This document shows, piece after piece, positions 5,180-58,799 of a stretch of 64,000 nt of DNA. The first letter of the stretch is position 1; every line of letters begins with the position of its first letter. The DNA lies in assembly GCA_947302535.1 (NCBI GenBank), contig CAMYVX010000001.1, positions 64,705-128,704 of the forward strand, in the 5' to 3' direction. Under the pieces are notes generated by a model that worked only from the letters and a program-made list of their open reading frames with translations, was not told where the DNA came from and did no database searches. The DNA is from an uncultured Bacillales bacterium (GTDB lineage Bacteria > Bacillota_I > Bacilli_A > RFN20 > CAG-826). The translations under genes and the position numbers were made by a program.

Positions 5180-7888
5180 ATGAGAAGTTTGAAACTAGAT
5201 GCTAGACAATATATTAAAAACGCCAATGATAATATCGAAAGCAATATAGATTTATTATGTCCTAACCACATAGGTTTATGTGCTCAAAACATATTGGGCC
5301 AATCAAGAAACCTATTGGATGGATTCGCCCTTCTACAATATGGTATAGATTATCCAACTTCCAATATTGACAATGCCTTGAAATTGATTCAAGAGGCTCA
5401 AAAACATTTGACACAAAAAGGCAAGAATTATCGTTGCTTTGTAGACTTGTATTCCTTTTTGCAAGTTTCTGCCTCACATTATACTCAAAACATTTTTGAT
5501 TCTGAATCACTTTTACTGAAGTACTCCGACTATTTATTTGATATTAGAGAATCCGCTAAAACATTATTTGATATTGATATTTTAAGCAACCTCGAAGATT
5601 TTCCATTTTCAAACAAGGAAGATGAAGAATATTATCGTTCCATCAAAGATGTTCTATTAGAGGGCGATGGTGGTGAAAGCACCATCGATCACACATATTA
5701 TATAGAGAGAAGAGTAAGAAGAAGATTCGGTATATACGAATATGTTCTTTCGCCCGCAAACGACAAAAGAACTAAATTTGATCGTTTAACAGCTTTCTCA
5801 TTAACAAAAATCAATGATTCTCATTCTATTAAATGCCGATTTGCCAAAAAGAAATTGATTCACAACGGAATAACAATTCAAATCGTTAAAATTGTTGATT
5901 GGTCGATTTCAATAAGACCATGTGAAATTCAAAAGTTGGCGTTTATTCAGCATCTGGATTTCAAAATCAATAGAAATACATCTGGATATATGCCACTTAT
6001 GGATGCACTAACCGCAAATAATTGCAGTTTGTATGATTTTATTATTTCTCCTTCGTTTGAAAGCGATATTAATGAATTGCTTTTGGATAAAGATAATAAA
6101 ATACGTCGCTTTTTGGAAGAAACACGAAAAAACATTAACACAGATAAAGTTGGTAGTAAGACTTTAAAATATCTTCTCTTTATTTGCTTACATAACATCA
6201 TAAAATATCAAATCATTCGCGATCCAGAAAAACAATTGGGTTATTATAGTTTGAATAATAGGTGCTACGCCTTTGATTCTCACCCATTCTCATTATCACT
6301 CATAAATCATAATCCAAAGTTAAGCGATTTATTAGACTGTTTGCCAGAATACTGCACAAATGAAGAACTACTTAAAAGAACAATTGTTATAAATACAGAA
6401 GATAGAAAGATGCTTTATACACCAGTGAAAGAACTGGATAAGGCATTCAACACTCTTGATTATGCTAAGGAATTTAACAAAATGCTAGTTGAAAAAACAA
6501 AGGGCTTGGCAATTGAATTTTTCAACAACTATGCTTATATCAAGTCTTACGAAGAACATACTATTTCAATTTTAAATGCCTTAATTGCAAAAAGAAGGAT
6601 TGTTGACCCTGACTATGAATCGGTGGCACTGCCCTATATTTCAAGTCTTCGTGATAATGAAATAGATAATGAAAAGATTGATATTCTCAAAAAAGGCTTT
6701 ACAGATTCATCGGTGTTATTAATTAATGGTGCAGCTGGAACCGGCAAGACAACACTAATTAAACATTTTTCCAATATTTTTAAAGATAAGAAAATCTTAT
6801 ACCTATCATGCACTAACTCTTCGGTTCAAAATCTTCAAATTAAAGTTGGCAAATCAGATAATAGAACTTTCATGACTCTTGAGAGATTTAGAAAGAAGAT
6901 GAATACGGGTGGTAACTTTAATTATTCTATTTTAATCGTTGATGAATGTTCTATGGTGGAGAACGAGGCTTTTGATTTTGTTCTAAAGAACATGGATTTT
7001 GAAAAAATGTTGCTCGTAGGTGATGAAAGACAAATCGAATCTATCAAGTTCGGAAACTGGTTCGGTATCGTTAATTCATTGTTAGATTGCGGTTGCGAAT
7101 TAACGTTTACTCACAGGACCACCGACAAAAATTTACAAACTATTTGGGATGCCGTTAGAGAATTAGAACAGCAGGATAGACTTTATGAGAGAATAATTAA
7201 TGCCGGATATCATCATCAATTTGATAGTGATTTATTTATCCCTAAGAGTTCTGATGAAATAATACTTTGTTTAAATTATGATGGTCTTTACGGCATTAAC
7301 AACATTAATAGATATCTCCAAGAAAGCAATCCTAATAGGGCTGTTTCTTGGAAAGTTTGGACTTTTAAAGTGGGTGATAGGGTATTATTTAATGAAAGCT
7401 ATTACTTTAGAGATTATTTTTATAACAATCAAAAAGGCATAATTGAAAGCATCGAAGATGATGATTACTCGGTGACATTTGTTGTATATGTTAATAGTGA
7501 ACCAACCAATAATCACAGTTGTTCTTCTCATGTGCGTTGGATTAAAGAAGAAGATGAAAAAGATTATTACTCAATAAGAATTGATAAGGATGATGACGAT
7601 GACGAAGAAGATAATTCTACAAAAGTATTGGTTGTCCCATTTCAACTTGGGTATGCAATTTCAATTCACAAATCACAAGGTCTTGAGTATGATTCTGTGA
7701 AAGTCATTATGACCAAAGAAGTTGAAGAACAAGTAACACACAACGTGTTTTATACTGCGATTACAAGAGCAAAGAAATTTCTTTCTATTTATTGCGATAA
7801 AGAATCCTTGTCTAGGATTATCAATTCTTTTGAAAAGCAGACCACCAAAAACGACGCTGAAATAATAAAGCGAAAATATAATCTTTAA
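5180..7888 (+). CDS. SF1B RecD/Pif1-like DNA helicase (AAA_30 + UvrD_C_2 type) with an uncharacterised ~430-aa N-terminal region
   Basis: Walker A LLINGAAGTGKTT. Motif II ILIVDECSMV. Motif III LLVGDERQIES. Motif V AISIHKSQGLEYDSV. Motif VI YTAITRAKKFLSIY. The N-terminal 430 aa has no motif I recognise. There is an acidic insertion DKDDDDDEEDNS. Confidence 0.75.
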   Translation: MRSLKLDARQYIKNANDNIESNIDLLCPNHIGLCAQNILGQSRNLLDGFALLQYGIDYPTSNIDNALKLIQEAQKHLTQKGKNYRCFVDLYSFLQVSASHYTQNIFDSESLLLKYSDYLFDIRESAKTLFDIDILSNLEDFPFSNKEDEEYYRSIKDVLLEGDGGESTIDHTYYIERRVRRRFGIYEYVLSPANDKRTKFDRLTAFSLTKINDSHSIKCRFAKKKLIHNGITIQIVKIVDWSISIRPCEIQKLAFIQHLDFKINRNTSGYMPLMDALTANNCSLYDFIISPSFESDINELLLDKDNKIRRFLEETRKNINTDKVGSKTLKYLLFICLHNIIKYQIIRDPEKQLGYYSLNNRCYAFDSHPFSLSLINHNPKLSDLLDCLPEYCTNEELLKRTIVINTEDRKMLYTPVKELDKAFNTLDYAKEFNKMLVEKTKGLAIEFFNNYAYIKSYEEHTISILNALIAKRRIVDPDYESVALPYISSLRDNEIDNEKIDILKKGFTDSSVLLINGAAGTGKTTLIKHFSNIFKDKKILYLSCTNSSVQNLQIKVGKSDNRTFMTLERFRKKMNTGGNFNYSILIVDECSMVENEAFDFVLKNMDFEKMLLVGDERQIESIKFGNWFGIVNSLLDCGCELTFTHRTTDKNLQTIWDAVRELEQQDRLYERIINAGYHHQFDSDLFIPKSSDEIILCLNYDGLYGINNINRYLQESNPNRAVSWKVWTFKVGDRVLFNESYYFRDYFYNNQKGIIESIEDDDYSVTFVVYVNSEPTNNHSCSSHVRWIKEEDEKDYYSIRIDKDDDDDEEDNSTKVLVVPFQLGYAISIHKSQGLEYDSVKVIMTKEVEEQVTHNVFYTAITRAKKFLSIYCDKESLSRIINSFEKQTTKNDAEIIKRKYNL

Positions 7889-18191: not shown

Positions 18192-20927
18192 TTGGATTTA
18201 TTCCAATCATTAATGCGGTTAAATATGTCTTTGTTAAAGAAAATAAGCAACACTTTCACATCAAAAATCACTAGACCGATTCTATCGAATATATTTGATT
18301 ATGTTCTTGTTGGATTGTGTCTTCTTTGTAGTGGCTATTCATTGTTTACTACATCCAATACAACTCCTAGAACAGTGTTTACTTGTGTTACCTTTTTTGT
18401 GATACTTGCAAGATTTGTGTTGACTTTTGACTTATCAACTTTAAAAGAAATCAAAAAGAACAAACGGCTATTGATTCCTCTGCCTTCTGTATGGTGCTTT
18501 TTGTTGTTGGGCATTTCGGCAGTTATCACTCTTTTTGTCAACAACGAATCAACTTATTTCATTTCATATTTCTATTATGGGATATTGGTTTTTTCAGCTT
18601 TTTTACTTTGTTATACTATTTCATTTAAGAGGTTCATTAAGGTATTTTGTGATGAGTTATTCTATTTAACAATAATTGCTATATTATTGTTTGCTCTTCA
18701 CAACATTGTTTCACCCTCTCTTGGTTTTTTGTTTTTTGACGCTGATAATACCATTTTCTCTAATAGCTTTCTTATATTTACTCAAAACGAATATGTGAAT
18801 AGAATTCATTCTATTTTTTGGGAGGCTGGCGTCTTTGCCTCTTTCTTGCTGTTGGCTTTGGCGTTTGAACTCCTTTTTTCTGACAACTTTAAACTCAGTC
18901 ACATCATCGTTTTCTTAGTAGCACTTATTTTTACTTTCTCAACAGCTGGCTACCTTTTGGCGGTCTTTATTATAGGGCCATTTTTTATTTATAAAATTAA
19001 AAACCAAAAGGTTAGAACTGCATTTGAATATGCATTTATACCAGTTGTTGTTCTCTTGCTTGTTGGTTTCATTTTCCTTTCAAGAGAACTTGCTAAATTT
19101 GCACCGACTCTTTTTGAAAAGATAGCAAAGGAATCTAATTCATTTACAACAAGATTGTATTCGCCCAAGATTAATCTTGAAATATTCCTCGAAAAGCCTT
19201 TCTTTGGTTGGGGGATTCATGGATCTAACGAAAGATATCTAGAAGTAGCTAATGCCGTACAATATGAAACTTTAATCGATGCACAGACTTCGACGAGTTT
19301 TGGATTGTTGGCAAGATTTGGTGTTTTTGGAATCATCTACACTTTAATGATGTTTTTTGGTATTGTGTTCGATAAAAAAATGCAGCCGCTTTCTTTGGTA
19401 TGCGTATTTCTTCTTTTCTTTGTGATTGTTAATAAGGAACCTCATGGTAATATGCTTATTTCATGGGCGTTGCTTTTCTTTTTTGTTCACAACAACATTG
19501 ACCAAGATATCATTGAAAAAAGACACAAAAAAAGTGAGTCTCCAGTTTATGAGAAAAAGACTTTGTTAGATGTTATTGAGAGTAAAGGCGATTCTGGAAC
19601 TGTTGCAAGAAATACGTTCTTGAGTCTTGGCTTGAAAGGCGTTGCTTTACTTGTCGGGCTTTTTACAATCCCTATTTATTCTAAATATTTTGGGAATGAT
19701 TCTACTTATGGTATTTGGCTGACATTCCTATCAATTATAACTTGGGTTATGACATTCGATTTAGGGTTTGGAAACGGAATGAAAAACAAACTCATCGAAA
19801 CCATTTCCAAGAAGGATAACGAAGAGGGAAAACGCATAGTATCCTCAACATATGCCGCTTCTTTAGCCATTGGTTCTGTTATCCTTGCTGTTGGTCTACT
19901 TATTATCAATCTAATTGATCTTGTTTCTCTATTTAATTTTGATCCGAGTGTTATATCAACCTCTACTGTTAGAATTGCTTTTTGTATTACTTTCTCGACA
20001 ATTGCAATCGAATTTGTTCTTAAGAATATTTCTCATATTTTCCAAGCGCACCAAAAACATTTTTTATCAAATCTCCTCCCTCTTCTCGCAAATATCACAC
20101 TTTTGATTTTTGCTTCAACTTCTAATTTCGGTAGTGTTTCTGACAAACTTTTATTCATATCAATAGCTTATTGTGTCATCACTTTATCTCCATATTTAAT
20201 TGCTTCTTTAATTGCTTTTTTAGGGCCATTAAAGTCAATTGCCCCAAGCTTTAAATATGCTTCGTTCTCAAAAGGAAGGAGTGTTATTTCTTTAGGACTA
20301 TTATTTTTTCTAATTCAATTAGCGCTTCTATTTTTAAATTCCATGGATCAAATTCTTGTTTCTAGTATTTTTTCCTCGGAAGACGTTGTTCTTTATACTA
20401 AATATTCCAAGTTCTTCAACGTCATTATTTCCATTTCCAATATTTTTAATAACATAATGTGGACCAGTGTTTGCAAATCAATATCAGACAATAATAAAAA
20501 ACAGTTAAATAAGGGCATAAAATCTCTATTAGCATTTGATTTACTTATGTGTCTCATATGTTTGATTATTGCTTTATTTATGCAGCCTCTACTAGATGTT
20601 TGGCTTGGTGAAAGCAGCTTCTCTGCTCAGCCATTTATTATCATTATTATTTTGTTATTTACTATAGAAAACATTTTTGTCTCGAGCACTGGGTCGTTGC
20701 TAAATGGATTTCAATGCCTTTTGCCACAAGCGATTTCTGTTGGTGCTGCTGCCATAGCAAAAATAGCGCTTGTGTTTATAATTCATAATATAAATAATTC
20801 TATAGGTTGGGAACTTGTATTTATTGTCAACGTTTTTGTCTATTTGCCAATATTGACAACCAACCTGTTCTTCCTTTACAAGTCATACAAAAAATTTAGT
20901 AAGAAAGTAGAAACATATGGAAATTAA
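18192..20927 (+). CDS. polytopic membrane protein: N-terminal Wzy-like O-antigen polymerase/ligase domain in frame with a C-terminal Wzx-like (MOP superfamily) flippase domain
   Basis: The N-terminal ~440 aa is multi-TM with a Wzy_C-like segment HSIFWEAGVFASFLLLALAFEL. The C-terminal ~450 aa resembles the start of a polysaccharide-biosynthesis (Wzx) protein: NTFLSLGLKGVALLVGLFTIPIYSKYFGNDSTYGIW. No stop codon separates the two halves in this frame. The halves may still be two genes if the second uses a TTG start. Confidence 0.6.
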   Translation: MDLFQSLMRLNMSLLKKISNTFTSKITRPILSNIFDYVLVGLCLLCSGYSLFTTSNTTPRTVFTCVTFFVILARFVLTFDLSTLKEIKKNKRLLIPLPSVWCFLLLGISAVITLFVNNESTYFISYFYYGILVFSAFLLCYTISFKRFIKVFCDELFYLTIIAILLFALHNIVSPSLGFLFFDADNTIFSNSFLIFTQNEYVNRIHSIFWEAGVFASFLLLALAFELLFSDNFKLSHIIVFLVALIFTFSTAGYLLAVFIIGPFFIYKIKNQKVRTAFEYAFIPVVVLLLVGFIFLSRELAKFAPTLFEKIAKESNSFTTRLYSPKINLEIFLEKPFFGWGIHGSNERYLEVANAVQYETLIDAQTSTSFGLLARFGVFGIIYTLMMFFGIVFDKKMQPLSLVCVFLLFFVIVNKEPHGNMLISWALLFFFVHNNIDQDIIEKRHKKSESPVYEKKTLLDVIESKGDSGTVARNTFLSLGLKGVALLVGLFTIPIYSKYFGNDSTYGIWLTFLSIITWVMTFDLGFGNGMKNKLIETISKKDNEEGKRIVSSTYAASLAIGSVILAVGLLIINLIDLVSLFNFDPSVISTSTVRIAFCITFSTIAIEFVLKNISHIFQAHQKHFLSNLLPLLANITLLIFASTSNFGSVSDKLLFISIAYCVITLSPYLIASLIAFLGPLKSIAPSFKYASFSKGRSVISLGLLFFLIQLALLFLNSMDQILVSSIFSSEDVVLYTKYSKFFNVIISISNIFNNIMWTSVCKSISDNNKKQLNKGIKSLLAFDLLMCLICLIIALFMQPLLDVWLGESSFSAQPFIIIIILLFTIENIFVSSTGSLLNGFQCLLPQAISVGAAAIAKIALVFIIHNINNSIGWELVFIVNVFVYLPILTTNLFFLYKSYKKFSKKVETYGN

Positions 20928-22095
20928 GAAAGAAAACATTAACAAAACCATGAAAGTTGGTGTCATATCTGCTGTTATTGAATTATTGGTTTTTGTGATG
21001 GCGTTTTTCTCATCTGTTTTTCTTCTTGGCTCCGACTATAAATTTGGAATTAAAGGTTTGGCAAATAGACTTAAAAATAGTGGCGAGCAAGAAATGGCAA
21101 TTGCTTCATATATCGAAGAAAATAATGCTGATAAATGGGAAACAATCTCATCAAACCATACAAGCAGTAGACCATTTATAAATTGTGCATCTAGATTTGT
21201 TGAAACATCTATAGATAAAAAGGAAATAACTGTATTTGATGTTCCTGAATGTGATAATGCTCATTATTCTTATAATCACATTTACGGATATGATGTTTGG
21301 CCAAAGATGGAGAGCGGCAGAATAGTTTTATCTAAAGATTTATATGTTTCTACTAAGTCTAGTATTGGTGATTCTATTTCAATAAAACTCGGAGAAGAAA
21401 CAAAAGTATTTACGGTCATTGGTTATTGTGAAGGCTCTAAAGAATCTGATAGGACTAAAATGGGAAATGTTATGGCGGATTTTTTAGGTGATTTTGCCGT
21501 TGTCATGAGAGAAGATTTAGATGACGTTGTGGTTTCTGGATATATGAAAACCGTCTCTTTGAATCAAGAAACACGAAGTTTTGAACTTGCGATAAGAGAT
21601 TGGACGGCTGATAAAAATGTTAATCCGAAAACAAGCAAATTCTCTAACTATGAAATACAAAATATATTTGGATTCTACAGTTCTGTTAATTCTAAGAAAG
21701 TTTTCCTAATACCAATTGGAATTGCTCTATTACTTTTGTCAGCTGTCTTGCTTTTATATTTTCAATTATCTTTTTACAAGTGTAATAAGCTAGGCAATAT
21801 AGGTTTATTGGTCATAACCATTAGCAGCATTTTAATTTGGTTTCTAGCGTCATTTATTTTTTCAAAAATAAAATTTAAATTGTTTGGCTATAGTGTGGTT
21901 CTCTCGACCACCGGTGCGTTTGTTTTGCCAACAATTTTACTATTATCATTCTGCTTGTTTTATATTGTTAGACTTCTTTTATTGGAAAAAGAAATTATTA
22001 ATAAACACAACATTGAGAATTCAGAAAATCTTCAGGAGGAGAAAGAAAATGAAAACAATATGGATAATGAATCATTATGCGACGAGTCCAAATAA
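20917..22095 (+). CDS. membrane protein with FtsX-like permease topology (N-terminal TM, large extracytoplasmic domain, three C-terminal TMs)
   Basis: Hydrophobic segments lie at residues ~13-36 and in three C-terminal stretches. No catalytic motif is recognised. Confidence 0.45.
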   Translation: MEIKKENINKTMKVGVISAVIELLVFVMAFFSSVFLLGSDYKFGIKGLANRLKNSGEQEMAIASYIEENNADKWETISSNHTSSRPFINCASRFVETSIDKKEITVFDVPECDNAHYSYNHIYGYDVWPKMESGRIVLSKDLYVSTKSSIGDSISIKLGEETKVFTVIGYCEGSKESDRTKMGNVMADFLGDFAVVMREDLDDVVVSGYMKTVSLNQETRSFELAIRDWTADKNVNPKTSKFSNYEIQNIFGFYSSVNSKKVFLIPIGIALLLLSAVLLLYFQLSFYKCNKLGNIGLLVITISSILIWFLASFIFSKIKFKLFGYSVVLSTTGAFVLPTILLLSFCLFYIVRLLLLEKEIINKHNIENSENLQEEKENENNMDNESLCDESK

Positions 22096-23314
22096 TGGAC
22101 CTTTGCCACGTCATTATTATCTAGCCAAAAGATTTAAAGAATACGGATACAAAGTCTGTATATTTGCATCCAACCAACTTCATGCGACTGATACTGAAGT
22201 ATCAACAGGCAAAGAGAAATATGCCGAAGTAGAAGAAAATGGAATTAAGTTTTTCTTCTTAAAAACAATGAAATATAAAGGCAATGGTGTGAAGCGTATT
22301 TTAAATATGCTTTCTTTTAAGAAAGCTTTAGTGAAAGTTTGGAAAAAAATAGCGAAGAAATATGGAAAACCCGACATCGTTCTTGGTTCAAGCGCTCACC
22401 TATTTACTTGTGTTTCCGCTCTTAAGATAGCAAAGAAAAATAAAATACCATGCATCTCTGAAGTTCGTGACCTCTGGCCAGAAGAACTGTTCACTGTTGG
22501 TAAGGTTAAAGAGAAGAGCTTCTTTGGAAAAGTGTTGCTAAGATTAGAAAGAAAAATATATGAAAAGTCAGATGCTCTTGTCTTTACTAAAGAAGGAGAT
22601 GTTGATCACATTAAAGAAATGAAATGGGATATCGCTCAAGGCGGTAAGATTGATTTAAATAAATGCAACTATATCAATAACGGCGTTGATTTTGATGAAT
22701 GGAACGCAAATATTAAGAATCACGTTTTCCCAATTGCTACGAAACCAGTTGGTAAGTTCTATGTTGGATATGCAGGATCTATTCGTCCTATGAATAACGT
22801 CGAACTTCTTATCGAAACTGCCGAATTAATGAAAAATGATAAATCGATTGTCTTCTATATTGCTGGGGCTGGCTCATTGTTAGAGAGTTTAAAACAAATG
22901 GCCAAAGAAAAAGAATTAGACAATATCGTTTTTACCGGATACATGGATAAAAGAATGGTGCCTTCGTTCCTCTCAAATATGGATTTGAATATCTTAGTCT
23001 ATTCTGACACAAAATATAATTGGAGCAGAGGCAATAGTTCAAATAAATTATTTGAATATATGGCAAGTGGTAAGCCCATTATTTCGACTGTTAAAACAGG
23101 TTACTCAATTATTGATAGATATAAATGTGGTGTAGAAATTGCTAAATGTGATGCCGCCCACTTATCAGAAGCCATTTTGAAAATGAAAGAATTAAACAAG
23201 AATGATTATGACACATATTGTCTTAATTCTTTAAAAGCTTCAAAAGACTTCGACTTTGATAAATTATCAAAAGACTATATCTCATTAGTTGAAAAATTAA
23301 TTAAAAAGGACTAA
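22049..23314 (+). CDS. GT4 glycosyltransferase, WbuB-like (candidate L-FucNAc transferase)
   Basis: N-terminus MKTIWIMNHYATSPNNGPLPRHYYLAKRFKEYGYKV is typical of the WbuB/WbjE subfamily. AGGAGGA Shine-Dalgarno lies 9 nt upstream of ATG 22049. The ORF-track start 21884 is probably an upstream extension. Confidence 0.75.
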   Translation: MKTIWIMNHYATSPNNGPLPRHYYLAKRFKEYGYKVCIFASNQLHATDTEVSTGKEKYAEVEENGIKFFFLKTMKYKGNGVKRILNMLSFKKALVKVWKKIAKKYGKPDIVLGSSAHLFTCVSALKIAKKNKIPCISEVRDLWPEELFTVGKVKEKSFFGKVLLRLERKIYEKSDALVFTKEGDVDHIKEMKWDIAQGGKIDLNKCNYINNGVDFDEWNANIKNHVFPIATKPVGKFYVGYAGSIRPMNNVELLIETAELMKNDKSIVFYIAGAGSLLESLKQMAKEKELDNIVFTGYMDKRMVPSFLSNMDLNILVYSDTKYNWSRGNSSNKLFEYMASGKPIISTVKTGYSIIDRYKCGVEIAKCDAAHLSEAILKMKELNKNDYDTYCLNSLKASKDFDFDKLSKDYISLVEKLIKKD

Positions 23315-23354: not shown

Positions 23355-24575
23355 ATGAATAAAGAAAAAGTTGTTGTTGTTGGTATGGGTTATATTGGCC
23401 TTCCAACATCTTTAGCTTTAACAAATGGCGGTATTGATGTCGTTGGATACGATTTAGACGCCAGAAAAATAGAAACATTAAAAAAAGGACAACTAACCTT
23501 TAAAGAAGATGGGTTAATGGACCTTTTTGAAGAGGCTAAGAAAAAAGGAATCTCATTTACATCAAATATTAAAGATTTGGTCAATGAAAATTTCTTCATT
23601 ATTTCTGTTCCAACGCCATACGATAAGGACAGTAAAAAAATCGATCCTTCGTATGTTGTTTCTGCATTTTCAAGCATTTATTCCATTTGTCCAGAAGGAT
23701 CAATTATTGTTATCGAATCTACAATTTCTCCTGGCACAATTGATAAAACAGTGAGACCACTCGTCAAAGAAAAACATGTCAATTTAGTCCACTGTCCCGA
23801 AAGAATTATCCCTGGCAACATGGTTTATGAACTCAAACACAATTCTAGAACCATTGGTGCAGACGATGCTGAAATCGGTGAAAGAGTTAAAAAAGTTTAT
23901 TCTTCTTTCTGCGAAGGAAATATCGTTATTACCTCTATTAAAGTTGCAGAAATGACCAAAGTTGTTGAAAACACATTTAGAGATATCAACATTGCGTATG
24001 CAAATGAATTGGTCAAGATTTGTGAAAAAGCCGGTGTTGATGTTTATGAAGTTATTAGAATTTCTAACGCACATCCACGTGTCAATATTCTTCAACCAGG
24101 TCCAGGAGTTGGTGGACACTGTATTTCTGTTGACCCATGGTTTTTAGTTGGTGATTATCCAATGGAAGCAAATCTTATCAAACAAGCTAGATTGATAAAT
24201 GACTCTATGCCAGAATATGTTTTGACTAGAGTTAGTAAGGTCGCTGAAAAGAACAACATTTCTTTTGATAGAATTGGCATTTACGGATTAACTTATAAAG
24301 AAAACGTTGATGATTTCAGAGAAAGTCCATCTTTACAAATGTTAGAATTTAGACAACAAACATGTTCAAAAAGTTTTGTTTCATTCGACCCTATGTTAGA
24401 AACAAAAATTGTTGAAGGCCAAGAAATGGATTTTAAAACATTTTTATCTAAGGTTGATCTAGTCATTGTCATGCAAAACCACAAACATCTTCTAGATAAC
24501 AAAAACCTTTTAAAAGGTAAAATCGTTTTTGATACAAAGAATTGCTTAGATATTGACGGAGTGTACAAATATTAG
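23355..24575 (+). CDS. wecC: UDP-N-acetyl-D-mannosamine dehydrogenase (UDP-sugar dehydrogenase family)
   Basis: VVVVGMGYIGLP Rossmann motif. Catalytic Cys motif GGHCISVD. Lies immediately upstream of wecB. Confidence 0.75.
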   Translation: MNKEKVVVVGMGYIGLPTSLALTNGGIDVVGYDLDARKIETLKKGQLTFKEDGLMDLFEEAKKKGISFTSNIKDLVNENFFIISVPTPYDKDSKKIDPSYVVSAFSSIYSICPEGSIIVIESTISPGTIDKTVRPLVKEKHVNLVHCPERIIPGNMVYELKHNSRTIGADDAEIGERVKKVYSSFCEGNIVITSIKVAEMTKVVENTFRDINIAYANELVKICEKAGVDVYEVIRISNAHPRVNILQPGPGVGGHCISVDPWFLVGDYPMEANLIKQARLINDSMPEYVLTRVSKVAEKNNISFDRIGIYGLTYKENVDDFRESPSLQMLEFRQQTCSKSFVSFDPMLETKIVEGQEMDFKTFLSKVDLVIVMQNHKHLLDNKNLLKGKIVFDTKNCLDIDGVYKY

Positions 24576-24579
24576 TTTT

Positions 24580-25686
24580 ATGAAAAAAGTAATGGTTGTT
24601 TTCGGTACTAGACCAGAAGCCATCAAAATGTGCCCTGTTGTTTTGGCGCTAAAGAAAAGAAAAAAACTCGATGTAGTTGTTTGTGTTTCTGGCCAACATA
24701 GAGAAATGTTAAGCCAAGTTCTCGATGTTTTTGGTGTGGTTCCTGATTATAACCTTGATATCATGAAGGAGAAACAAGATTTATTCCACATTACATCCGA
24801 AATCCTTTTACGTTTTAAAGATGTTTTACAAAAAGAAAAACCTGATTTAATTCTCGTTCATGGTGATACATCTACAACATTTGTGTCTGCCTTATCAGCT
24901 TTTTATCTACAAATTCCGGTAGGACACGTAGAAGCTGGGCTTAGAACAAATGATATTTATTCTCCATTCCCAGAAGAATTTAATAGACGTGGTGTTTCTA
25001 TTATTTCTAGATTAAATTTTGCTCCAACGAAATTATCTAGAGAAAACCTCTTAAAAGAAAATGTTGATCCTAAGACTATTTTCGTTACTGGTAACACCGC
25101 GATTGATGCTTTAAAAGTTACTGTAAAAAAAGATTTCGACTCGGATTACTTAAGATGGGTAGGAGATTCTAAACTAATACTTCTTACTGCTCACAGAAGA
25201 GAGAATCTTGGAAAGCCTCTTGAAAACATATTTGAAGCTGTGAATGAATTAACAAGACGATATCCGGATATAAAAGTCTTATATCCTGTTCATATGAACC
25301 CATTAATTAGAGAAACGGCAGCAAAGGTTTTTAAAGACAATAAACAGATTAAACTAATTGATCCATTGGAACCGATTTCATTTCATAATCTCATTTCTAA
25401 ATCATTCTTTGTTATGACTGATAGTGGTGGAATTCAAGAAGAAGCCCCATCTTTAAACAAACCAGTTTTAGTTTTAAGAGAAGTTACCGAAAGACCAGAA
25501 GGTGTTGATGGTGGAACTCTAAAATTAGTTGGCACAAATAAGGATTCTATTTTAGAAGCTGCTTGTGATTTGATGGAAAATAGGAATGGTATCTTTGATA
25601 AAATGAGCAGCGCCGAAAATCCTTATGGAGATGGTTTTGCTTCTGAAAGAATTGCAGAAATTGTTGAAAATGAACTTTATCGATAA
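24580..25686 (+). CDS. wecB: UDP-N-acetylglucosamine 2-epimerase (non-hydrolysing)
   Basis: MKKVMVVFGTRPEAIKMCPV. HVEAGLRT. DSGGIQEEAPSLNKPVLVLR. Confidence 0.9.
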   Translation: MKKVMVVFGTRPEAIKMCPVVLALKKRKKLDVVVCVSGQHREMLSQVLDVFGVVPDYNLDIMKEKQDLFHITSEILLRFKDVLQKEKPDLILVHGDTSTTFVSALSAFYLQIPVGHVEAGLRTNDIYSPFPEEFNRRGVSIISRLNFAPTKLSRENLLKENVDPKTIFVTGNTAIDALKVTVKKDFDSDYLRWVGDSKLILLTAHRRENLGKPLENIFEAVNELTRRYPDIKVLYPVHMNPLIRETAAKVFKDNKQIKLIDPLEPISFHNLISKSFFVMTDSGGIQEEAPSLNKPVLVLREVTERPEGVDGGTLKLVGTNKDSILEAACDLMENRNGIFDKMSSAENPYGDGFASERIAEIVENELYR

Positions 25687-30722: not shown

Positions 30723-31925
30723 ATGAAAAAAGTGCTTGTTTATTATCTTTATTCCGAAAAAAATGCCGGCGATATGGCGATATGTTTTGGATTGCTCGAT
30801 TTATTAGAATGCATCCATGATATTTCTATCACCGTTGTTTCTAGATATTCTGGCAAAGAAAATTTATTCGTCAGATCAAAATGGTTGACGCTTAAATATC
30901 ATCCTAATATCAACGTGAAGCCAGGCTATATAAAATATAATCGTGACGGAAGTAAACTTTCAAAACTTAAATCTTATTTAAGTGGTTTCGTTATTTCAAG
31001 TTTCCCAAGCTTCAATAAGAACATGAAGAAGGAAATAAAAGAAGCTGACCTAGTCTTATTTAACGGGGGCAATTTTTTAAGAACAAATTCGTTTGCCGAT
31101 AGATCTAGAATGAAAGCGTTATTTTTCCCTCTTAAGTACGCTAAAAAACATGGCAAAACAGTTATTTGTATGCCTCAATCAACAACCACAGCCAAAAGTA
31201 AAAAGGCATTAAGAAAATTAGAAAAAACTTTGAATGTGTTTGATTATATTTTCCTACGTGACCCGTTATCTTATTCATATTTTAAGGAACATAGAATGTT
31301 CGACGAACAAAAATATTCCCTTTCTTGTGACTTGGCATTCTTTTCTAATGAGCCTGTTGTTGAAAAAATGGACGAGCATCTTACATTAGTTAAAACAAAG
31401 AATATTGCTATTAATTGTCGTTTGACATCTATTGGTGACATAGGCGAAATTTCTGAAGATAAAAAAGCCGATATCGCAAATACTTATGAACATTTGATTA
31501 CAAATTATCCAGAGTATCAATTTAACTTTATCTGCCAAACAGAGAAAGATTATCCTTTCATGAATGCCTTTTACAAAAAGCTATTGGAAAAGGGTATTAA
31601 GAATATTGGATTCTTCAAAAACAACGACCCATACATTTTAAAATCAATTTATAAGAAGCACGATTTGCTCATTTCTATGCGTCTGCATGCGAGTATACTC
31701 GCTATTTCATCTGGTATTAAAGTGATTGGATTCTCTTATAAAGAGTGGGGTTTTAAAAACGCTGGTATTTTAAATCAATTCGGCTTCAAAAATTTTGAAA
31801 ATGGACAAGGGGTAATTGATAGTTTTGAATCAGTGCTCGCTCATGATAAGGCTATCGATACAGCACAATTATCAAAAGATTTTAAAGATAGTATTCTTGA
31901 AAAAATGGAAGGTTACATTAAATAG
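30723..31925 (+). CDS. polysaccharide pyruvyl transferase family protein
   Basis: N-terminal NAGDMAI motif. Fold-family resemblance to CsaB/WcaK-type pyruvyl transferases. Confidence 0.65.
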   Translation: MKKVLVYYLYSEKNAGDMAICFGLLDLLECIHDISITVVSRYSGKENLFVRSKWLTLKYHPNINVKPGYIKYNRDGSKLSKLKSYLSGFVISSFPSFNKNMKKEIKEADLVLFNGGNFLRTNSFADRSRMKALFFPLKYAKKHGKTVICMPQSTTTAKSKKALRKLEKTLNVFDYIFLRDPLSYSYFKEHRMFDEQKYSLSCDLAFFSNEPVVEKMDEHLTLVKTKNIAINCRLTSIGDIGEISEDKKADIANTYEHLITNYPEYQFNFICQTEKDYPFMNAFYKKLLEKGIKNIGFFKNNDPYILKSIYKKHDLLISMRLHASILAISSGIKVIGFSYKEWGFKNAGILNQFGFKNFENGQGVIDSFESVLAHDKAIDTAQLSKDFKDSILEKMEGYIK

Positions 31926-31927
31926 TT

Positions 31928-32584
31928 ATGAAAAAAGATTCTCGTGGTATTAAAAAAGTTGGACCATTTTATTATTTCTTTAAAAGGTTCTTTGATATTC
32001 TTTTTTCCTTTATCTTTTTAGTCTTACTTTCTTGGTTACTTTTAATCTTAGCTATTATAGTTAAATGTTCATCTAAAGGACCAATCCTCTTTAAAGATGT
32101 AAGAGTAGGAAGAAAAGGTAAAACTATTAAGGTTTGGAAATACCGCTCAATGTATATAGATGCAGAGAGTAATATTGATAAATATCTTACTCCAGAACAA
32201 AAAGAGATTTGGATTAGGGAAAGAAAACTTGATAACGATCCAAGAATTACAAAGATCGGTCGCTTCTTAAGAAAGACTTCTTTAGATGAATTACCTCAAT
32301 TATTTAATATCTTTGGTGGTTCAATGACATTCGTTGGTCCTCGCCCTATTACTAAAGTTGAGTTAGAAGAACACTTCAATGAGCAAGAAAAAGAAATCAT
32401 TCTCTTAGCTAGACCAGGCTTAACTGGATATTGGCAAGTATATGCAAGAAATGATGCTGAATTTGAAACAGGCGAAAGACAAAAACTAGAACTCGCCTAT
32501 TTCCAAAAAAGAGGATTATTCTTCGACTTCAAATTATTGATATTAACTATCCCCGCAGTGTTAAAACATAAGGGTGCAAAATAA
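31928..32584 (+). CDS. undecaprenyl-phosphate sugar phosphotransferase (PglC/WbaP C-terminal-domain type priming transferase)
   Basis: DELPQLFNIFGGSMTFVGPRP. Single N-terminal TM. Confidence 0.85.
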   Translation: MKKDSRGIKKVGPFYYFFKRFFDILFSFIFLVLLSWLLLILAIIVKCSSKGPILFKDVRVGRKGKTIKVWKYRSMYIDAESNIDKYLTPEQKEIWIRERKLDNDPRITKIGRFLRKTSLDELPQLFNIFGGSMTFVGPRPITKVELEEHFNEQEKEIILLARPGLTGYWQVYARNDAEFETGERQKLELAYFQKRGLFFDFKLLILTIPAVLKHKGAK

Positions 32585-32615
32585 AAGCAGGCAACTGCAA
32601 TATTTGCATATTTTA

Positions 32616-32643
32616 TTGACATAGAAGCCTTGGGTTATATAAT
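32616..32643 (+). promoter_or_regulatory. sigma-70-type promoter (TTGACA-16 bp-TATAAT) preceded by palindrome TGCAATATTTGCA
   Basis: TTGACA at 32616-32621 and TATAAT at 32638-32643. GAGG lies 8 nt before ATG 32662. Confidence 0.5.
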
Positions 32644-32661
32644 ATACTCGAGGTTTTTATT

Positions 32662-33855
32662 ATGACACTTAAAGAAATACGCAAAAATTGCAAATTAACA
32701 CAAAAGGAAGTGGCGGATATCGTTGGTATGCCACTTAGAACATATGTGAATTATGAAACTAACGAAGCAAATGCCGATCAAATTAAATTAGAAGGGATTA
32801 AAGATAGACTTATGGAATATATGGCTAAAGATACATCAATATTAAAAGGAAAGGTTTTATTAATCACTGGTGGTACCGGTTCATTTGGTCATGCCGTAGT
32901 GGACCGTTTCTTAGATACTGATATAAAAGAGATTAGAATTTTATCTCGTGATGAGAAGAAACAAGATGATATGCGCAAAGCATATAATAACGAGAAACTT
33001 AAGTTCTATATCGGTGATGTACGTAACTTAGATAGCATCATTGATGCTTTTAAAGGAGTAGATTATGTCTTCTCTGCAGCGGCATTAAAACAAGTCCCAT
33101 CTTGTGAATTCTATCCAATGGAAGCTGTACGTACCAATGTTATTGGTAGCGACAATGTTATTACCGCTTGTGTGCGTAATCATGTGAAGAAGGCTATCTT
33201 CTTATCTACTGATAAGGCTGCTTATCCAATTAATGCGATGGGTATCTCTAAAGCCTTAATGGAAAAGAATGTTATTGCTAGAAGTAGGCAACTTCTTCCA
33301 GGAGATACAGTACTTTGTTTAACTAGATATGGTAACGTTATGGCGTCTCGTGGCTCTGTTATCCCCTTATTCTTAAATCAAATCCATGAAGGTAAACCAA
33401 TAACCATCACTAACCCAGATATGACTAGATTTATGATGACTCTTGATGATGCAGTGGATTTAGTCTTATATGCTTTTGAACACGGCGAACAAGGTGACTT
33501 ATTTGTCCAAAAAGCACCCGCGGCCACGATTGAAACATTAGCGAAAGCTGTTATTGATTTAACTAATAGTAAGACTGGTATCTCCTATATTGGTACTAGA
33601 CACGGTGAGAAACTATACGAAACTCTTGTTACACAAGAAGAAATGCTTAAGTCCGTTGATATGGGCAACTTCTTCTGTATTAAAGCGGATAACCGTGACC
33701 TTAATTATGATAAATACTTCTCTAAAGGTAATAAGAAACTCAATTTAGGAGAATCATATACATCTCATAATACTGGTAGACTTGATGTTGAAGGAATGAA
33801 ACAGTTATTAAAGAAACTTGAATTATTCGGTGGACCAGTCAGACAACACGAATAG
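32662..33855 (+). CDS. capE: UDP-N-acetylglucosamine 4,6-dehydratase/5-epimerase (CapE/FnlA-type) carrying an in-frame ~50-aa N-terminal XRE-type HTH extension
   Basis: The core aligns closely with S. aureus Cap5E: LLITGGTGSFG. ILSRDEKKQDDMRKAYNNEKLKFYIGDVRN. TRYGNVMASRGSVIPLF. TRFMMTLDDAVDLVLYAFEHGE. The extra N-terminus is MTLKEIRKNCKLTQKEVADIVGMPLRTYVNYE. Confidence 0.85.
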   Translation: MTLKEIRKNCKLTQKEVADIVGMPLRTYVNYETNEANADQIKLEGIKDRLMEYMAKDTSILKGKVLLITGGTGSFGHAVVDRFLDTDIKEIRILSRDEKKQDDMRKAYNNEKLKFYIGDVRNLDSIIDAFKGVDYVFSAAALKQVPSCEFYPMEAVRTNVIGSDNVITACVRNHVKKAIFLSTDKAAYPINAMGISKALMEKNVIARSRQLLPGDTVLCLTRYGNVMASRGSVIPLFLNQIHEGKPITITNPDMTRFMMTLDDAVDLVLYAFEHGEQGDLFVQKAPAATIETLAKAVIDLTNSKTGISYIGTRHGEKLYETLVTQEEMLKSVDMGNFFCIKADNRDLNYDKYFSKGNKKLNLGESYTSHNTGRLDVEGMKQLLKKLELFGGPVRQHE

Positions 33856-33866
33856 GAGGATTATCT

Positions 33867-35015
33867 ATGCCTTTTAAAAATAATGGAAAAATCAAATTAA
33901 TGATTATCGTTGGTACTAGACCAGAGATTATTCGTCTAGCCGCGGTCATTAATAAATGTAGAGATTATTTTGATACATTACTTGTCCATACTGGACAAAA
34001 TTATGATTACACCTTAAACGGCGTGTTCTTTAAAGATTTAGGAATCAAAGATCCTGATATTTATTTAAACGCGGTGGGTAATGATTTAGGAGAAACAATG
34101 GGCAACATCATTGCTAAATCTTATCAAGCGATGGTGGAACATATACCTGATGCAGTTTTAGTCTTAGGTGACACGAATAGCTGCTTATCAGTGATAGGTG
34201 CGAAACGTTTACATATCCCCATCTTCCATATGGAAGCCGGTAATAGATGTAAAGATGAATGTTTACCAGAAGAGACTAATAGAAGAATTGTGGATATTAT
34301 CTCCGATGTTAATTTAGCTTATAGTGAACACGCTAGACGTTATTTAGCCGATACGGGGCTACCAAAAGAAAGAACATATGTCACAGGCTCCCCAATGGCG
34401 GAAGTGCTCTCAAATAACTTAAAATCGATTGAAAATAGCGATATTCTTACTAGACTCAACTTACAAAAAGGTAAATATATCCTTTTAAGCGCGCATAGAG
34501 AAGAAAACATCGATACTGATAAGAACTTCTATTCCTTATTTAACGCGATTAACCAATTAGCGGAAAAATATGATATGCCAATCCTTTATTCTTGTCATCC
34601 TCGTAGTAAGAAGAAACTGGAAAAGACTGGCTTTAAGTTAGATAAACGTGTAGTAATGCATGAACCTCTAGGTTTCCATGACTATAACAATTTACAAATG
34701 AATGCATTTTGCGTTGTTTCTGATAGTGGTACACTTCCAGAAGAAAGTAGTTTCTATGCCTCTATTAATAGACCAATCGCGGCAGTTTGTATTAGAACAT
34801 CTACTGAAAGACCAGAAGCGCTTGACGAAGCTTGCTTCGTTTTAGCGGGCATTGACACCAAGAATCTTCTTCAAGCGGTGGAAGTCGCTGTGCTTAATAA
34901 AGCAGGATGTAAACCAGTAAGAGACTATATAGACACAAATGTGTCTGATAAGGTTGTGAAATTAATCCAATCTTATACCGGCGTTGTGAATAAGATGGTT
35001 TGGAGAAAAGAATAA
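33867..35015 (+). CDS. capG: UDP-N-acetylglucosamine 2-epimerase, CapG/FnlC-type (UDP-L-FucNAc pathway)
   Basis: KLMIIVGTRPEIIRL. VHTGQNYDYTLN. FHMEAGNRC. VTGSPM. Confidence 0.85.
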   Translation: MPFKNNGKIKLMIIVGTRPEIIRLAAVINKCRDYFDTLLVHTGQNYDYTLNGVFFKDLGIKDPDIYLNAVGNDLGETMGNIIAKSYQAMVEHIPDAVLVLGDTNSCLSVIGAKRLHIPIFHMEAGNRCKDECLPEETNRRIVDIISDVNLAYSEHARRYLADTGLPKERTYVTGSPMAEVLSNNLKSIENSDILTRLNLQKGKYILLSAHREENIDTDKNFYSLFNAINQLAEKYDMPILYSCHPRSKKKLEKTGFKLDKRVVMHEPLGFHDYNNLQMNAFCVVSDSGTLPEESSFYASINRPIAAVCIRTSTERPEALDEACFVLAGIDTKNLLQAVEVAVLNKAGCKPVRDYIDTNVSDKVVKLIQSYTGVVNKMVWRKE

Positions 35016-35019
35016 GTTT

Positions 35020-36123
35020 ATGAAAGTACTTGTCACAGGTGCGAATGGCTTTATAGGTAAACATATGTGCCTTCATCTATCTAGAGAAGGTATAGATGTT
35101 TTAAAGTACGATTTAGATAATAAAGAAGAAGACCTTATTAATTTTATTAATGAAGCTGATTTTATTATCCATCTAGCCGGTATTAATCGCCCATTAAGTA
35201 AAGAAGAGTTTTATGACGGTAACACTAACTTCACAAAGAAGGTTGTAGATTTAATTAAATCTAGTGGTAAAAATATTCCTATTATTATGTCTAGTTCCAC
35301 ACAAGCTGAATTAGATAATGATTATGGTAAAAGTAAGAAGATGGGTGAAGACTACCTATTAGCGAGCGGCCTTCCTGTATACGTCTTTAGGCTTTCTAAT
35401 GTCTTTGGTAAATGGTGTCGACCTAATTACAACTCTGCATGTGCGACATTTTGCTATAACATCGCTCATGATTTACCAATAGAAATTAGAGATAGAGAAT
35501 ATGTTGTCCACTTTAATTACGTGGATGATATATGTGCGACATTTATCTCTATTATCAAAGATAACAACCATAAAGGCTCTAAAGATATTTTAAAAGTGAA
35601 TCCCATTCATGATTGTTCTTTAGGTAGACTTGCTGATTTACTTTATTACTTTAAACAAGAAATAGAATCAGATAGGCACTTACCTCTAATTCATGATGAA
35701 TTTGAATTAAAACTATTTAAAACATTCTGTGATTATCTTTCTGATCCAGGATATAGTTTTAACTTTGCTAGCGATAATAGAGGCTCATTTGAAGAATTAT
35801 ATAAATCTAAAAAATGGGGGCAAATAAGTGATAATGTTTCTTTCCCTGGAATTGTCAAAGGCGGGCATTATCATACCTATAAAAAAGAAATATTCTATAC
35901 CGTAGTGGGAACATGCCGTATTAGACAAAGAAGTGTTAAGGATAATACGATGTTAGACGTCACTGCTAGTGGACTTAACTCTCACCCAGTTGATATCCTT
36001 CCTTATTACACTCATGAGATTACTAATATAGGCAAGGTAAATAGTCACACGATTATGTGGATATCAGAGATTTATAACCCTGATACCCATGATACATATA
36101 GAGAAGATATAGAAGCAAAATAA
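35020..36123 (+). CDS. capF: CapF/FnlB-type bifunctional reductase/epimerase (UDP-L-FucNAc pathway)
   Basis: MKVLVTGANGFIGKH Rossmann N-terminus. C-terminal cupin-like region. Length 367 aa. Flanked by capE and capG homologues. Confidence 0.75.
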   Translation: MKVLVTGANGFIGKHMCLHLSREGIDVLKYDLDNKEEDLINFINEADFIIHLAGINRPLSKEEFYDGNTNFTKKVVDLIKSSGKNIPIIMSSSTQAELDNDYGKSKKMGEDYLLASGLPVYVFRLSNVFGKWCRPNYNSACATFCYNIAHDLPIEIRDREYVVHFNYVDDICATFISIIKDNNHKGSKDILKVNPIHDCSLGRLADLLYYFKQEIESDRHLPLIHDEFELKLFKTFCDYLSDPGYSFNFASDNRGSFEELYKSKKWGQISDNVSFPGIVKGGHYHTYKKEIFYTVVGTCRIRQRSVKDNTMLDVTASGLNSHPVDILPYYTHEITNIGKVNSHTIMWISEIYNPDTHDTYREDIEAK

Positions 36124-55596: not shown

Positions 55597-56274
55597 ATGA
55601 AAAAATTATTTACTGCTGCTTTAGGCACACTTATGATTTTTGGTCTCGCAGCTTGCGGTGGTTCTAAGAAAGATCCAGAACCAACACCAGAACCAGAAAA
55701 ATACGATACCACAAAACGCGCTGTACCAGAAGGTTATTCAGTGTTTGCTCAAGGTGGCGCTCTTGGTTGGGATCTCGGTATTGAAGGTACTGAAATGGCC
55801 GCAGCCTCTATCAAAGACGTTTCTGGTTTAAGCACCGACGTTGCTGATGCATTACAAGCTAAGTTTGACAAAGCTAGCGATGAAGAAAAGAAAGGTTTCT
55901 ATCTCTATACCTTAGAAGTTAAATTAGAAGGTGAAGCTGGCTGGACAACAAACGTCATGAAAGATGGCGAAGTCGTTGCTGTTGATGGTGCCAACACCAT
56001 TAAAGGCCGTATGGGTCACTATGATGCAGAAGACGAAGCTTGGATTTCCGATGCTTGGTTCCCAGATCCACACCTCTTCCACGCTGAATCTTTAACTCCA
56101 TCATCCTTATTCATTGCTGAAAACTGGGCTGAAGAAGCTGATGAACATGGCTTTGACTGGACAAGTAACCCAGCCGCTTATGAACAAGGCACCTACAAAT
56201 TTGTTTTAGCTCTTTATACCTGGGTTGCTCCATCTGCTACAGCTTGCAACATTGGCATGGCTTTAATTAAATAA
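55597..56274 (+). CDS. hypothetical lipoprotein (225 aa), Ala/Gly/Glu-rich
   Basis: Lipobox GLAACGGSKKDPEPTPEPE. AGGAGG Shine-Dalgarno. No recognisable catalytic motif. Located within the starch-utilisation locus. Confidence 0.6.
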   Translation: MKKLFTAALGTLMIFGLAACGGSKKDPEPTPEPEKYDTTKRAVPEGYSVFAQGGALGWDLGIEGTEMAAASIKDVSGLSTDVADALQAKFDKASDEEKKGFYLYTLEVKLEGEAGWTTNVMKDGEVVAVDGANTIKGRMGHYDAEDEAWISDAWFPDPHLFHAESLTPSSLFIAENWAEEADEHGFDWTSNPAAYEQGTYKFVLALYTWVAPSATACNIGMALIK

Positions 56275-58385: not shown

Positions 58386-58799
58386 ATGAACAAGAATAGA
58401 CTTAGAACTTACCCAATAAAATCTTTAACTATATTCTTGGCGATAACTTTTGTCGTCTCTTTAACGATGGTTATTATCTTTATTTTCCTTCATGATGAAC
58501 TTATGGTCATTAGAGTCTTAGTGTGGATTTTATGTGGCTTATTTACCGTTGCTTCATTCATTGTTTTAATACATCAGTTATTCTTCTATGTTGCGGTGGA
58601 TGAAGAGTATTTCTATCGTTATTATTTGTTTGGTTATGAGAAATATGCTTTAACAAAAATTAACAAAATCATCAACAATGAAGGCTTTTATGATGTTTAT
58701 GTGAAAGATCAACGTGTTGCAACTTTTGCTAGTGATACTAGAGAAAGTCAACAAATAATCATGTTCTTGGAACAACATAAAGTCAGTGTTGATTGGTAA
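58386..58799 (+). CDS. small membrane protein (two TM helices), hypothetical
   Basis: Hydrophobic segments IFLAITFVVSLTMVIIFIFL and VLVWILCGLFTVASFIVLI. Abuts the amylase gene. Confidence 0.4.
   Translation: MNKNRLRTYPIKSLTIFLAITFVVSLTMVIIFIFLHDELMVIRVLVWILCGLFTVASFIVLIHQLFFYVAVDEEYFYRYYLFGYEKYALTKINKIINNEGFYDVYVKDQRVATFASDTRESQQIIMFLEQHKVSVDW

Follow-up and report, generated by a model that had tools for sequence, protein, structure and literature searches.

Why should a sugar-nucleotide dehydratase begin with a DNA-binding domain? This question is raised by one gene in a 64,000-nucleotide stretch of contig CAMYVX010000001.1 from an uncultured Bacillales bacterium (the window, to whose positions all plain coordinates refer). 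Its complete coding sequence (32662..33855, + strand; 397 amino acids plus stop, according to the open reading frame (ORF) list) joins an XRE-type helix-turn-helix (HTH) module, a linker, and an FnlA/CapE-type dehydratase/epimerase. Catalytic and DNA-binding-type domains thus lie in one polypeptide, and they do so as a single ORF in more than 120 clusters. A first-pass annotation of this DNA had proposed a genuine fusion with its own promoter and a possible role in autoregulation of a capEGF sub-operon. Comparison with related loci supports that overall view, and we place at roughly 0.6 the probability that the fused enzyme autoregulates its own fnlA-fnlC-fnlB operon, acting as a self-regulating trigger enzyme.

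The N-terminal module and the enzyme body

Homologues of the fused protein were collected from 5.8 billion proteins. The 120 best matches are 87-94% identical to it and without exception span 100% of its length; in 106, the length is exactly 397 amino acids. Since gene callers favor long ORFs, evidence independent of annotation was sought. The first-pass annotation had supported ATG 32662 as the start by a GAGG Shine-Dalgarno (SD) sequence, and both features stand: GAGG (32650..32653, +; read from the sequence) lies 8 nt before this ATG, and GAGG or AGAGG occurs at the same distance before the extension ATG in related loci. The same annotation had placed the canonical enzyme start at the sequence MAKDTS of codon 54 (32821), and this part did not hold. 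Residue 54 is Met in 15 of 119 relatives, and 66 of the 119 have no Met at all in residues 47-65 and therefore no ATG-started, extension-free product; unfused FnlA proteins start 4-8 residues ahead of the Rossmann strand, which corresponds to about residue 58-60 of the fused protein. For the 14 loci with available DNA, the proportions of nonsynonymous and synonymous differences in the extension were 0.13-0.29 (pN) versus 0.55-0.95 (pS), with synonymous sites near saturation and a nonsynonymous-to-synonymous ratio (dN/dS, omega) of ~0.1-0.4; no indels, stops, or frameshifts were found in it across these loci.

The competing explanation that the extension is an annotation artefact, with the real start at ATG 32812 or 32821 (M51 or M54) and the upstream stretch a leader or a decayed regulator gene, takes its appeal from the two methionines present in the window protein, from the preference of gene callers for the longest ORF, and from the fact that FnlA proteins in nature are mostly extension-free. 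The Met counts and the unbroken, length-conserved frame at saturated synonymous sites speak against it, as do the lack of any SD-like sequence before 32812 or 32821 and the predicted transcription start site (TSS), which leaves a leader of only ~12 nt. An internal start at M51 or M54 was rejected on conservation and is effectively refuted by the comparison; we give this explanation almost no credence. From the loss of Met54, the pN and pS values, the conserved SD sequence, and the invariant residues of helices 2 and 3 described below, we conclude that the extension is, on this comparative evidence, a real, translated protein domain under purifying selection.

The fusion is as unusual as the first-pass annotation had supposed. 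Among ~150 FnlA loci, drawn from metagenomes and species-representative genomes and spanning many phyla, nearly all of the proteins start M-x-F-K-D-K-VLLITGG and are extension-free. Fused proteins were seen in gut metagenome-assembled genomes (MAGs), those of rumen and horse among them, labeled Erysipelotrichaceae, Bacilli, Bacillales, and Firmicutes. It had been suggested that orthologues be checked for the extension; in this gut Bacilli/Erysipelotrichaceae-type clade they share it, with strictly kept length and under purifying selection. The fused loci include L001-L004 (89-92% identity), L081 (73%), L100, and L011, which is 61% identical overall and has a module as similar as those of the close relatives. 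A match to residues 10-388 in L019 (Muribaculaceae) proved spurious as a fusion; its fnlA is unfused and preceded by an unrelated ORF of 225 amino acids.

The extension matched HTH_3 (PF01381) at residues 3-43 with 31.2 bits in the full protein (gathering cut-off, 23), and residues 1-53 alone gave 36.1 bits (E 6.5e-9), in agreement with the initial description of an in-frame extension of ~50 amino acids with HTH character. AlphaFold2 (AF2) modeled the module (residues 1-55, 32662..32826, +, including the peptide TYVNYETNEANADQIK) with predicted local distance difference test (pLDDT) values of 85-95 when run on the whole protein and of 87.6 when run on the isolated module. Helices were placed at residues 3-10, 14-21, 25-33, and 40-53/55, and the recognition helix (25-33) begins with R26-T27. 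Foldseek comparison with the PDB yielded a probability of 1.0 and TM scores of 0.7-0.8 to C.BclI, C.Kpn2I, C.Esp1396I, C.AhdI, HipB, HigA2, P2 C, DdrO, and SinR; with a query of only 54 residues, the corresponding E-values stayed weak (0.03-0.17). The best solved relative of the module sequence profile was the MqsA HTH domain (E 8e-6), and the profile alignment pairs R26 with MqsA Asn97, which we take to be a base-contacting residue in the MqsA-DNA structure. Seven module residues are invariant (L3, R7, T13, Q14, R26, Y31, and E32), and five of these (T13, Q14, R26, Y31, and E32) are located in helices 2 and 3. On the Pfam, AF2, Foldseek, and profile evidence, together with dN/dS, residues 1-55 are predicted to be an XRE/lambda-repressor-type HTH.

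The linker (residues 56-63, DTSILKGK; 32827..32850, +) lies between helix 4 and Rossmann strand beta-1 and shows a pLDDT dip to ~68. It is followed by the enzyme body (residues 64-397; 32851..33852, +), assigned from Pfam and PDB matches as an extended short-chain dehydrogenase/reductase (SDR) and, more precisely, as a UDP-N-acetylglucosamine 4,6-dehydratase/5-epimerase of the FnlA/CapE type. Residues 66-387 match Polysacc_synt_2 (PF02719, E 3.8e-101) and Polysacc_syn_2C (PF08485, E 5.7e-21), and residues 59-389 align end to end with Acinetobacter baumannii FnlA (PDB 4j2o, E 1.5e-149) and Staphylococcus aureus CapE (3vvb, E 2.4e-131); no solved structure among the FnlA/CapE matches covers residues 1-58. 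The top NCBIfam model for the fused protein was FnlA TIGR04130 with 536.6 bits, and PseB was far behind (306.8); since the equivalog cut-off of 730 is unmet, the protein is filed as FnlA/CapE-type and not as a proven equivalog. In the full-length AF2 run, the body had pLDDT <50 because the alignment held only relatives of ~90% identity.

In CapE, mutagenesis identified Asp125, Lys126, Met134, and Glu257 as important residues, and M134xxxK138 in place of the SDR YxxxK motif is a hallmark of the enzyme (PMC3699295). The equivalent positions of the fused protein are D184, K185, M193xxxK197 (M193-G-I-S-K197), and E316, and across 56 relatives each of these is either invariant or conserved to at least 90%. 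The GGTGSFG Rossmann motif is intact, and omega for the body is 0.02-0.04 (the value for L011 was left out as invalid through indels). Because the mutationally defined catalytic residues of CapE are all kept, the enzyme half is very probably catalytically active.

The promoter and its flanking palindromes

The sigma-70-type promoter that the first-pass annotation had reported upstream of the gene is present (32616..32643, +). It consists of TTGACA (32616-32621), a 16-nt spacer, and TATAAT (32638-32643), and it is the sole 12/12 consensus match in 31800-34000; the promoter scan overall was not enriched (11 sites versus 9.4 expected). A TSS near 32650 is predicted from its position.

The palindrome noted earlier just 5' of the -35 element was also recovered, and the comparison showed it to be fusion-specific. 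This 13-bp site, O1 (TGCAATATTTGCA, 32596..32608, unstranded; consensus TGCAA-N3-TTGCA), ends 7 nt before the -35 hexamer, with its center at about -48 from the predicted TSS. The exact pattern TGCA-N5-TGCA occurs once in 64 kb, with 0.86 expected by chance, so the significance of O1 comes only from the comparison across loci. In the aligned fused loci, the upstream intergenic DNA has diverged everywhere except at O1. TGCAA-N3-TTGCA at ≤1 mismatch was found in 14 of 16 fused loci versus 0 of 137 unfused fnlA loci, the latter scanned over 150 nt upstream at the same threshold (Fisher p = 5e-18, a value that, like the binomial P values below, overstates independence given that the loci are related). 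The order O1, gap of 7-8 nt, -35, 16-18 nt, -10 is found in 11 of the 16 loci, with the O1 center at about -48 to -51. We also considered O1 as a site for CcpA. The CcpA cre site is the 14-bp TGWAANCGNTNWCA with a central CG; O1 has 13 bp and an A/T center and is specific to fused genes, and on these features the assignment was rejected, no cre model being applied.

A second site emerged from the repeat finder as the inverted-repeat partner of the O1 region (32675-32692). This site, O2 (CGCAAAAATTGCA, 32680..32692, unstranded), is a one-mismatch copy of O1 within codons 7-11 of the fused gene (R7-K8-N9-C10-K11). Relative to the predicted TSS, O2 is centered at about +36; the center-to-center distance to O1 is 84 bp, and the two sites bracket the promoter. 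The identical 13-mer is present in 6 of the 16 loci and GCA-N5-TGCA in 11. Codon choice within O2 is strongly biased: at codon 7, 14 of 16 loci use CGC, which makes up 17% of the Arg codons in the rest of these genes (P = 1.8e-9), and Cys10 is TGC in 13 of 13 loci versus a 64% background (P = 0.003). To judge from this bias at synonymous positions, O2 is conserved as DNA beyond the constraint on the protein.

Several loci (among L161, L162, L169-L171, and L081) additionally carry a TGCAA half-site between the SD sequence and the start (GAGGTGCAAAT-ATG), 10-12 nt before the ATG. In L169 and L170, a full one-mismatch dyad, TGCAAGAGGTGCA, lies 16 nt upstream of the ATG and overlaps the SD sequence; this dyad, which the window does not have, may be a third operator.

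A scan of the window for further members of a regulon returned 7 sites at ≤1 mismatch versus 3.4 expected, a borderline excess that 3 of 100 shuffles reach. Apart from O1 and O2 these are 19091-19103, 19595-19607, 25644-25656, 56245-56257, and 58718-58730, of which only the last is intergenic, ~200 nt upstream of the ORF at 58925-60793. The five sites are scattered and mostly intragenic, and the scan gives no support for further targets in the window.

Sister fusions, other partners, and the cassette

If the module binds DNA, a sister family carrying it would be expected to have an operator of its own. Locus L169 provides such a family: the 430-aa product of its ORF 6212-7504 (+) couples a homologous module (module hidden Markov model (HMM), E 4e-12) to an enzyme of the UDP-glucose/GDP-mannose-dehydrogenase family. 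Further dehydrogenase fusions lie at L170:7087-8013, L175:3001-4305, L179:3001-4323, and L183:3001-4374. The family comprises more than 120 clusters. Among its 120 best matches, which are 408-479 amino acids long and 40-52% identical to the query save for a few close relatives, 118 cover at least 99% of the query and all 120 match the module HMM. The expected operator was found in 4 of 4 independent dehydrogenase-fusion lineages with DNA, as a perfect upstream GTGCCA-N3-TGGCAC dyad. Its place is between the -35 position and a -10-like box; the box stops exactly 6 nt short of the ATG, and such a layout points to leaderless mRNAs and to an occluding operator of the classical kind in the dehydrogenase fusions.

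The two families differ in the recognition helix, which reads PLR(T/S)YKR(L/I)E in the dehydrogenase type versus PLRTYVxYE in the FnlA type, and the half-site co-varies with the module, being TGCCA in the former and TGCAA in the latter. In L169, both gene/operator pairs stand side by side in one genome. We regard this co-variation as the strongest non-experimental indication that the module recognizes these palindromes. It also bears on the proposal that the module is translated without binding O1 or O2, serving as a protein-protein or oligomerization element or as a decoy, and that a separate regulator uses the palindromes. XRE modules are abundant in these genomes (other HTH_3 proteins lie beside the cassette in L161 and L162, for example), and the module itself occurs on many non-regulatory partners. 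A separate regulator would nevertheless have to account for an O1 that occurs upstream of fused genes only and travels with the cassette into neighborhoods sharing no regulator gene, for an operator that co-varies with the module between the two families and even inside one genome (L169), and for the clustering of the best-conserved module positions in helices 2 and 3. We consider it distinctly improbable.

To survey the partners of the module, 1.84 billion cluster representatives (50%-identity set) were searched with its profile. The commonest partner is a minimal nucleotidyltransferase of ~160 amino acids with the motif CYLFGSYAKG...SDVDL, of the Xre-MNT/HEPN toxin-antitoxin type (P0161, P0201, P0203, P0204, P0230, P0241, P0249, P0251, P0264, and P0270), a pool that may have been the source of the HTH in the glycan-enzyme fusions. 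The module also occurs on the divergent Polysacc_synt_2 dehydratases P0146 (390 aa) and P0180 (342 aa) and on P0226 (352 aa), which resembles the N-terminal part of transketolase. Upstream of P0146 (L172-L174), an 8-5-8 palindrome, ATCGTTTT-CTTTA-AAAACGAT, was found at L173:84-104, and no TGCAA dyad was present in the ~130 nt of upstream sequence available. Six other proteins of 388-1014 amino acids (P0121, P0123, P0124, P0132, P0136, and P0162) contain 5-12 HTHs in tandem that are similar to module residues 1-35.

In the window, the fused gene is followed by a non-hydrolysing UDP-N-acetylglucosamine (UDP-GlcNAc) 2-epimerase gene in the FnlC/CapG position (33867..35015, +; Pfam Epimerase_2, E 3.8e-78; NCBIfam wecB, 218.5 bits, above the cut-off of 210) and by a reductase gene of the FnlB/CapF/WbcJ type (35020..36123, +), whose product combines an SDR with a C-terminal cupin-like Polysacc_synt_C domain (PF01370 and PF14667) and scores 332 bits with NCBIfam UDPAcbARedWbcJ, under its cut-off of 500. 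By these assignments, the three genes make up the three-enzyme route to UDP-N-acetyl-L-fucosamine (UDP-L-FucNAc) described for CapE/F/G. The upstream neighbor (31928..32584, +) encodes a Bac_transf initiating sugar-phosphate transferase (PF02397, E 1.2e-57; NCBIfam EPS_sugtrans/WbaP-like); it is the last gene of the preceding glycan block and lies outside the cassette.

The trio recurs in L161-L165 and L167-L171. The epimerase follows the fused gene in most related loci, and the epimerase and reductase genes come after fnlA in either order; in L166:6001-7898 a Bac_transf gene follows the fused fnlA in place of both. The gene upstream of the cassette is unrelated in other genomes. The cassette lies within glycan loci in the window, L163, and L164, with GGDEF and flavodoxin genes on either side in L161, between unrelated genes and mgtE in L162, and after an Fe-ADH gene in L167. 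Judged by these neighborhoods, it behaves as a portable unit with its own control region.

The window also encodes its own UDP-sugar dehydrogenase of 406 amino acids (23355-24575, +), which has all three UDPG_MGDP_dh domains and lacks the HTH module, and no operator of the type found with the dehydrogenase (Ugd-type) fusions is present in the window. For these two reasons, self-regulation in the window would be confined to the fnl cassette. Two large ORFs of the glycan locus, 20917-22095 and 21884-23314 (+), overlap by ~210 nt; the second, a GT4 glycosyltransferase, has TTG as its listed start, and the overlap may reflect a mis-assigned start or a frameshift.

Probable self-regulation and its precedents

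How might the fused protein act on its own promoter? In CapE, three dimers make up a stable hexamer (PMC3699295). If the fused enzyme oligomerizes in the same way, its HTH modules would be paired and six of them displayed, enough for two dyads. The paired modules would bind O1 and O2, perhaps together with looping of the 84-bp promoter segment, and transcription of the cassette would then be set by the enzyme's own concentration. The simplest outcome of binding at -48 and +36 would be repression, by looping or by a roadblock, and the two downstream enzymes would also be held down. Negative autoregulation appears the likeliest direction because the promoter is a 12/12 match to consensus. A response to substrate can be envisaged as well: the largest subunit interface of CapE changes from ~2,160 square angstroms in the coenzyme-bound form to 5,016 square angstroms in the substrate-analogue-bound form (PMC3699295). 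Since CapE interfaces change with ligand, we speculate that occupancy by UDP-GlcNAc or NADP(H) could remodel the interfaces and hence the HTH geometry, making DNA binding, and with it repression, responsive to ligand.

The position of O1 allows the opposite direction too. A site near -48 fits activation, whether class-II-like or like that of restriction-modification controllers, as well as it fits repression, and the fused protein might activate its own promoter, or switch from activator to repressor with increasing concentration, O2 being the low-affinity repressing site. RNA polymerase recruitment from beside the -35 element is known for restriction-modification controller C-proteins and for lambda cI at OR2. 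In keeping with such a role, O1 lies 7-8 nt before the -35 element with its center at -48 to -51, clear of the core promoter; many related loci have weak -35 elements (TAGACA, TTACTA, TTGCGT, and TTTTAA); and C.BclI, C.Kpn2I, C.Esp1396I, and C.AhdI are among the nearest structural neighbors of the module. The window promoter, with its 12/12 match, should however need no activator, the sister dehydrogenase operator lies within the -35/spacer region in a repressor geometry, and a site at +36 suggests a roadblock or looping. We therefore think activation unlikely, and repression by the fused enzyme remains our preferred account.

Several observations weigh against autorepression by the fused enzyme or limit its detail. 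All of its functional steps are drawn from comparison of sequences, and the loci behind the P values are related to one another. O1 has two mismatches in L164 and L166, the best match in the 150 nt upstream in L166 being TGCAATAAATGCT, and in L011, L081, and L167 the O2 copy is degenerate or missing. The spacing between O1 and O2 varies (84, 86, 89, and 91 bp), so that the strict helical phasing of a loop is not kept. The poor AF2 model of the enzyme body gives no view of two HTH modules 13 bp apart on an oligomer, and the score for the FnlA model stays below its equivalog cut-off.

A broader and more tentative proposal, which we hold to be rather doubtful at present, is that, within one gut lineage of uncultured Bacilli, a portable 55-residue XRE module has repeatedly been joined to the N-termini of oligomeric Rossmann-fold sugar-nucleotide enzymes, each with a cognate dyad operator, forming ligand- or oligomer-gated switches, and that the FnlA hexamer loops its promoter between O1 and O2. 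The partners covered would be the FnlA-type dehydratases (including P0146 and P0180), the UDP-sugar dehydrogenases, and the transketolase-like protein. If true, these would constitute an undescribed class of self-contained metabolic switches, making each glycan-precursor cassette autonomously homeostatic and freely transferable. The narrower reading, in which the fused FnlA governs its own operon, would if true explain how the three-gene UDP-L-FucNAc cassette moves between glycan loci, and even outside them, with its expression kept correct.

To our knowledge, few enzymes double as transcription factors, most of them long-standing textbook examples, and natural, still-active enzyme/regulator fusions, the supposed intermediate in the evolution of regulators from enzymes on the argument made for BzdR, are rarely documented. 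The fused FnlA would be a clean and abundant natural example in surface-glycan precursor synthesis. One of its putative operators, O2, appears to constrain codons of the regulator's own N-terminus, and the sister family, with TGCCA in place of TGCAA half-sites, provides a ready-made specificity swap. A full-text literature search, with subscription journals outside its scope, found no description of an HTH fused to CapE/FnlA or of an architecture combining HTH_3 with Polysacc_synt_2. The fused proteins are already in databases under generic names ('polysaccharide biosynthesis protein' and 'nucleotide sugar dehydrogenase'), and many such entries from gut Bacilli MAGs probably hide regulators. 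The general kind, an enzyme/transcription-factor fusion, is known; what appears new here is the FnlA-type case, with putative operators defined to the base pair and a natural specificity control in the sister family.

Among known systems, the body of the fused protein resembles FnlA, CapE, and WbjB in its MxxxK in place of YxxxK, its active-site D/K/E residues, and the CapG/FnlC-like and CapF/FnlB-like genes downstream. It differs from FnlA and CapE in that the solved proteins and the ~150 surveyed have no N-terminal domain and in its failure to reach the NCBIfam equivalog cut-off. BirA, PutA, and NadR are trigger enzymes, or bifunctional enzyme-repressors, whose DNA binding responds to substrate, and by analogy the fused FnlA would most likely work as they do. 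The DNA-binding domain of BirA is a winged helix and that of PutA a ribbon-helix-helix, whereas here the domain is of the XRE type, the enzyme a (by analogy hexameric) extended-SDR sugar-nucleotide dehydratase, and the pathway one for surface-glycan precursors.

In sequence and structure, the module comes nearest to MqsA, HipB, HigA2, the C-proteins, and Xre-RES. MqsA, HipB, HigA2, and the C-proteins, like P2 C, DdrO, and SinR, are dimeric XRE proteins that act on short palindromes, mostly at their own promoters; the first four are stand-alone proteins of ~70-130 amino acids or antitoxins with a toxin partner, whereas here the partner that would dimerize or oligomerize the module is a biosynthetic enzyme covalently joined to it. 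In the Xre-RES complex, several HTH dimers engage two sites in one promoter (PMC12204516). Six HTH modules on the two dyads O1 and O2 would resemble this arrangement.

BzdR offers the closest parallel in domain order, with an N-terminal XRE-type HTH, a linker, and a C-terminal shikimate-kinase-like domain, and it has been cited as a model for enzymes recruiting DNA-binding domains (PMC3602430). Its kinase-like domain has lost catalysis and senses benzoyl-CoA, and this loss was argued to be essential; the bifunctional stage was built artificially as the Q1 chimera (PMC3602430). The fused FnlA likewise combines an XRE HTH, a linker, and an enzyme-derived C-terminal domain. Unlike BzdR, it keeps its catalytic residues, with omega for the body at the low values given above, and it is not a member of the BzdR type. 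From its sequence conservation, it looks like the still-bifunctional stage that the authors of the BzdR study made as the Q1 chimera.

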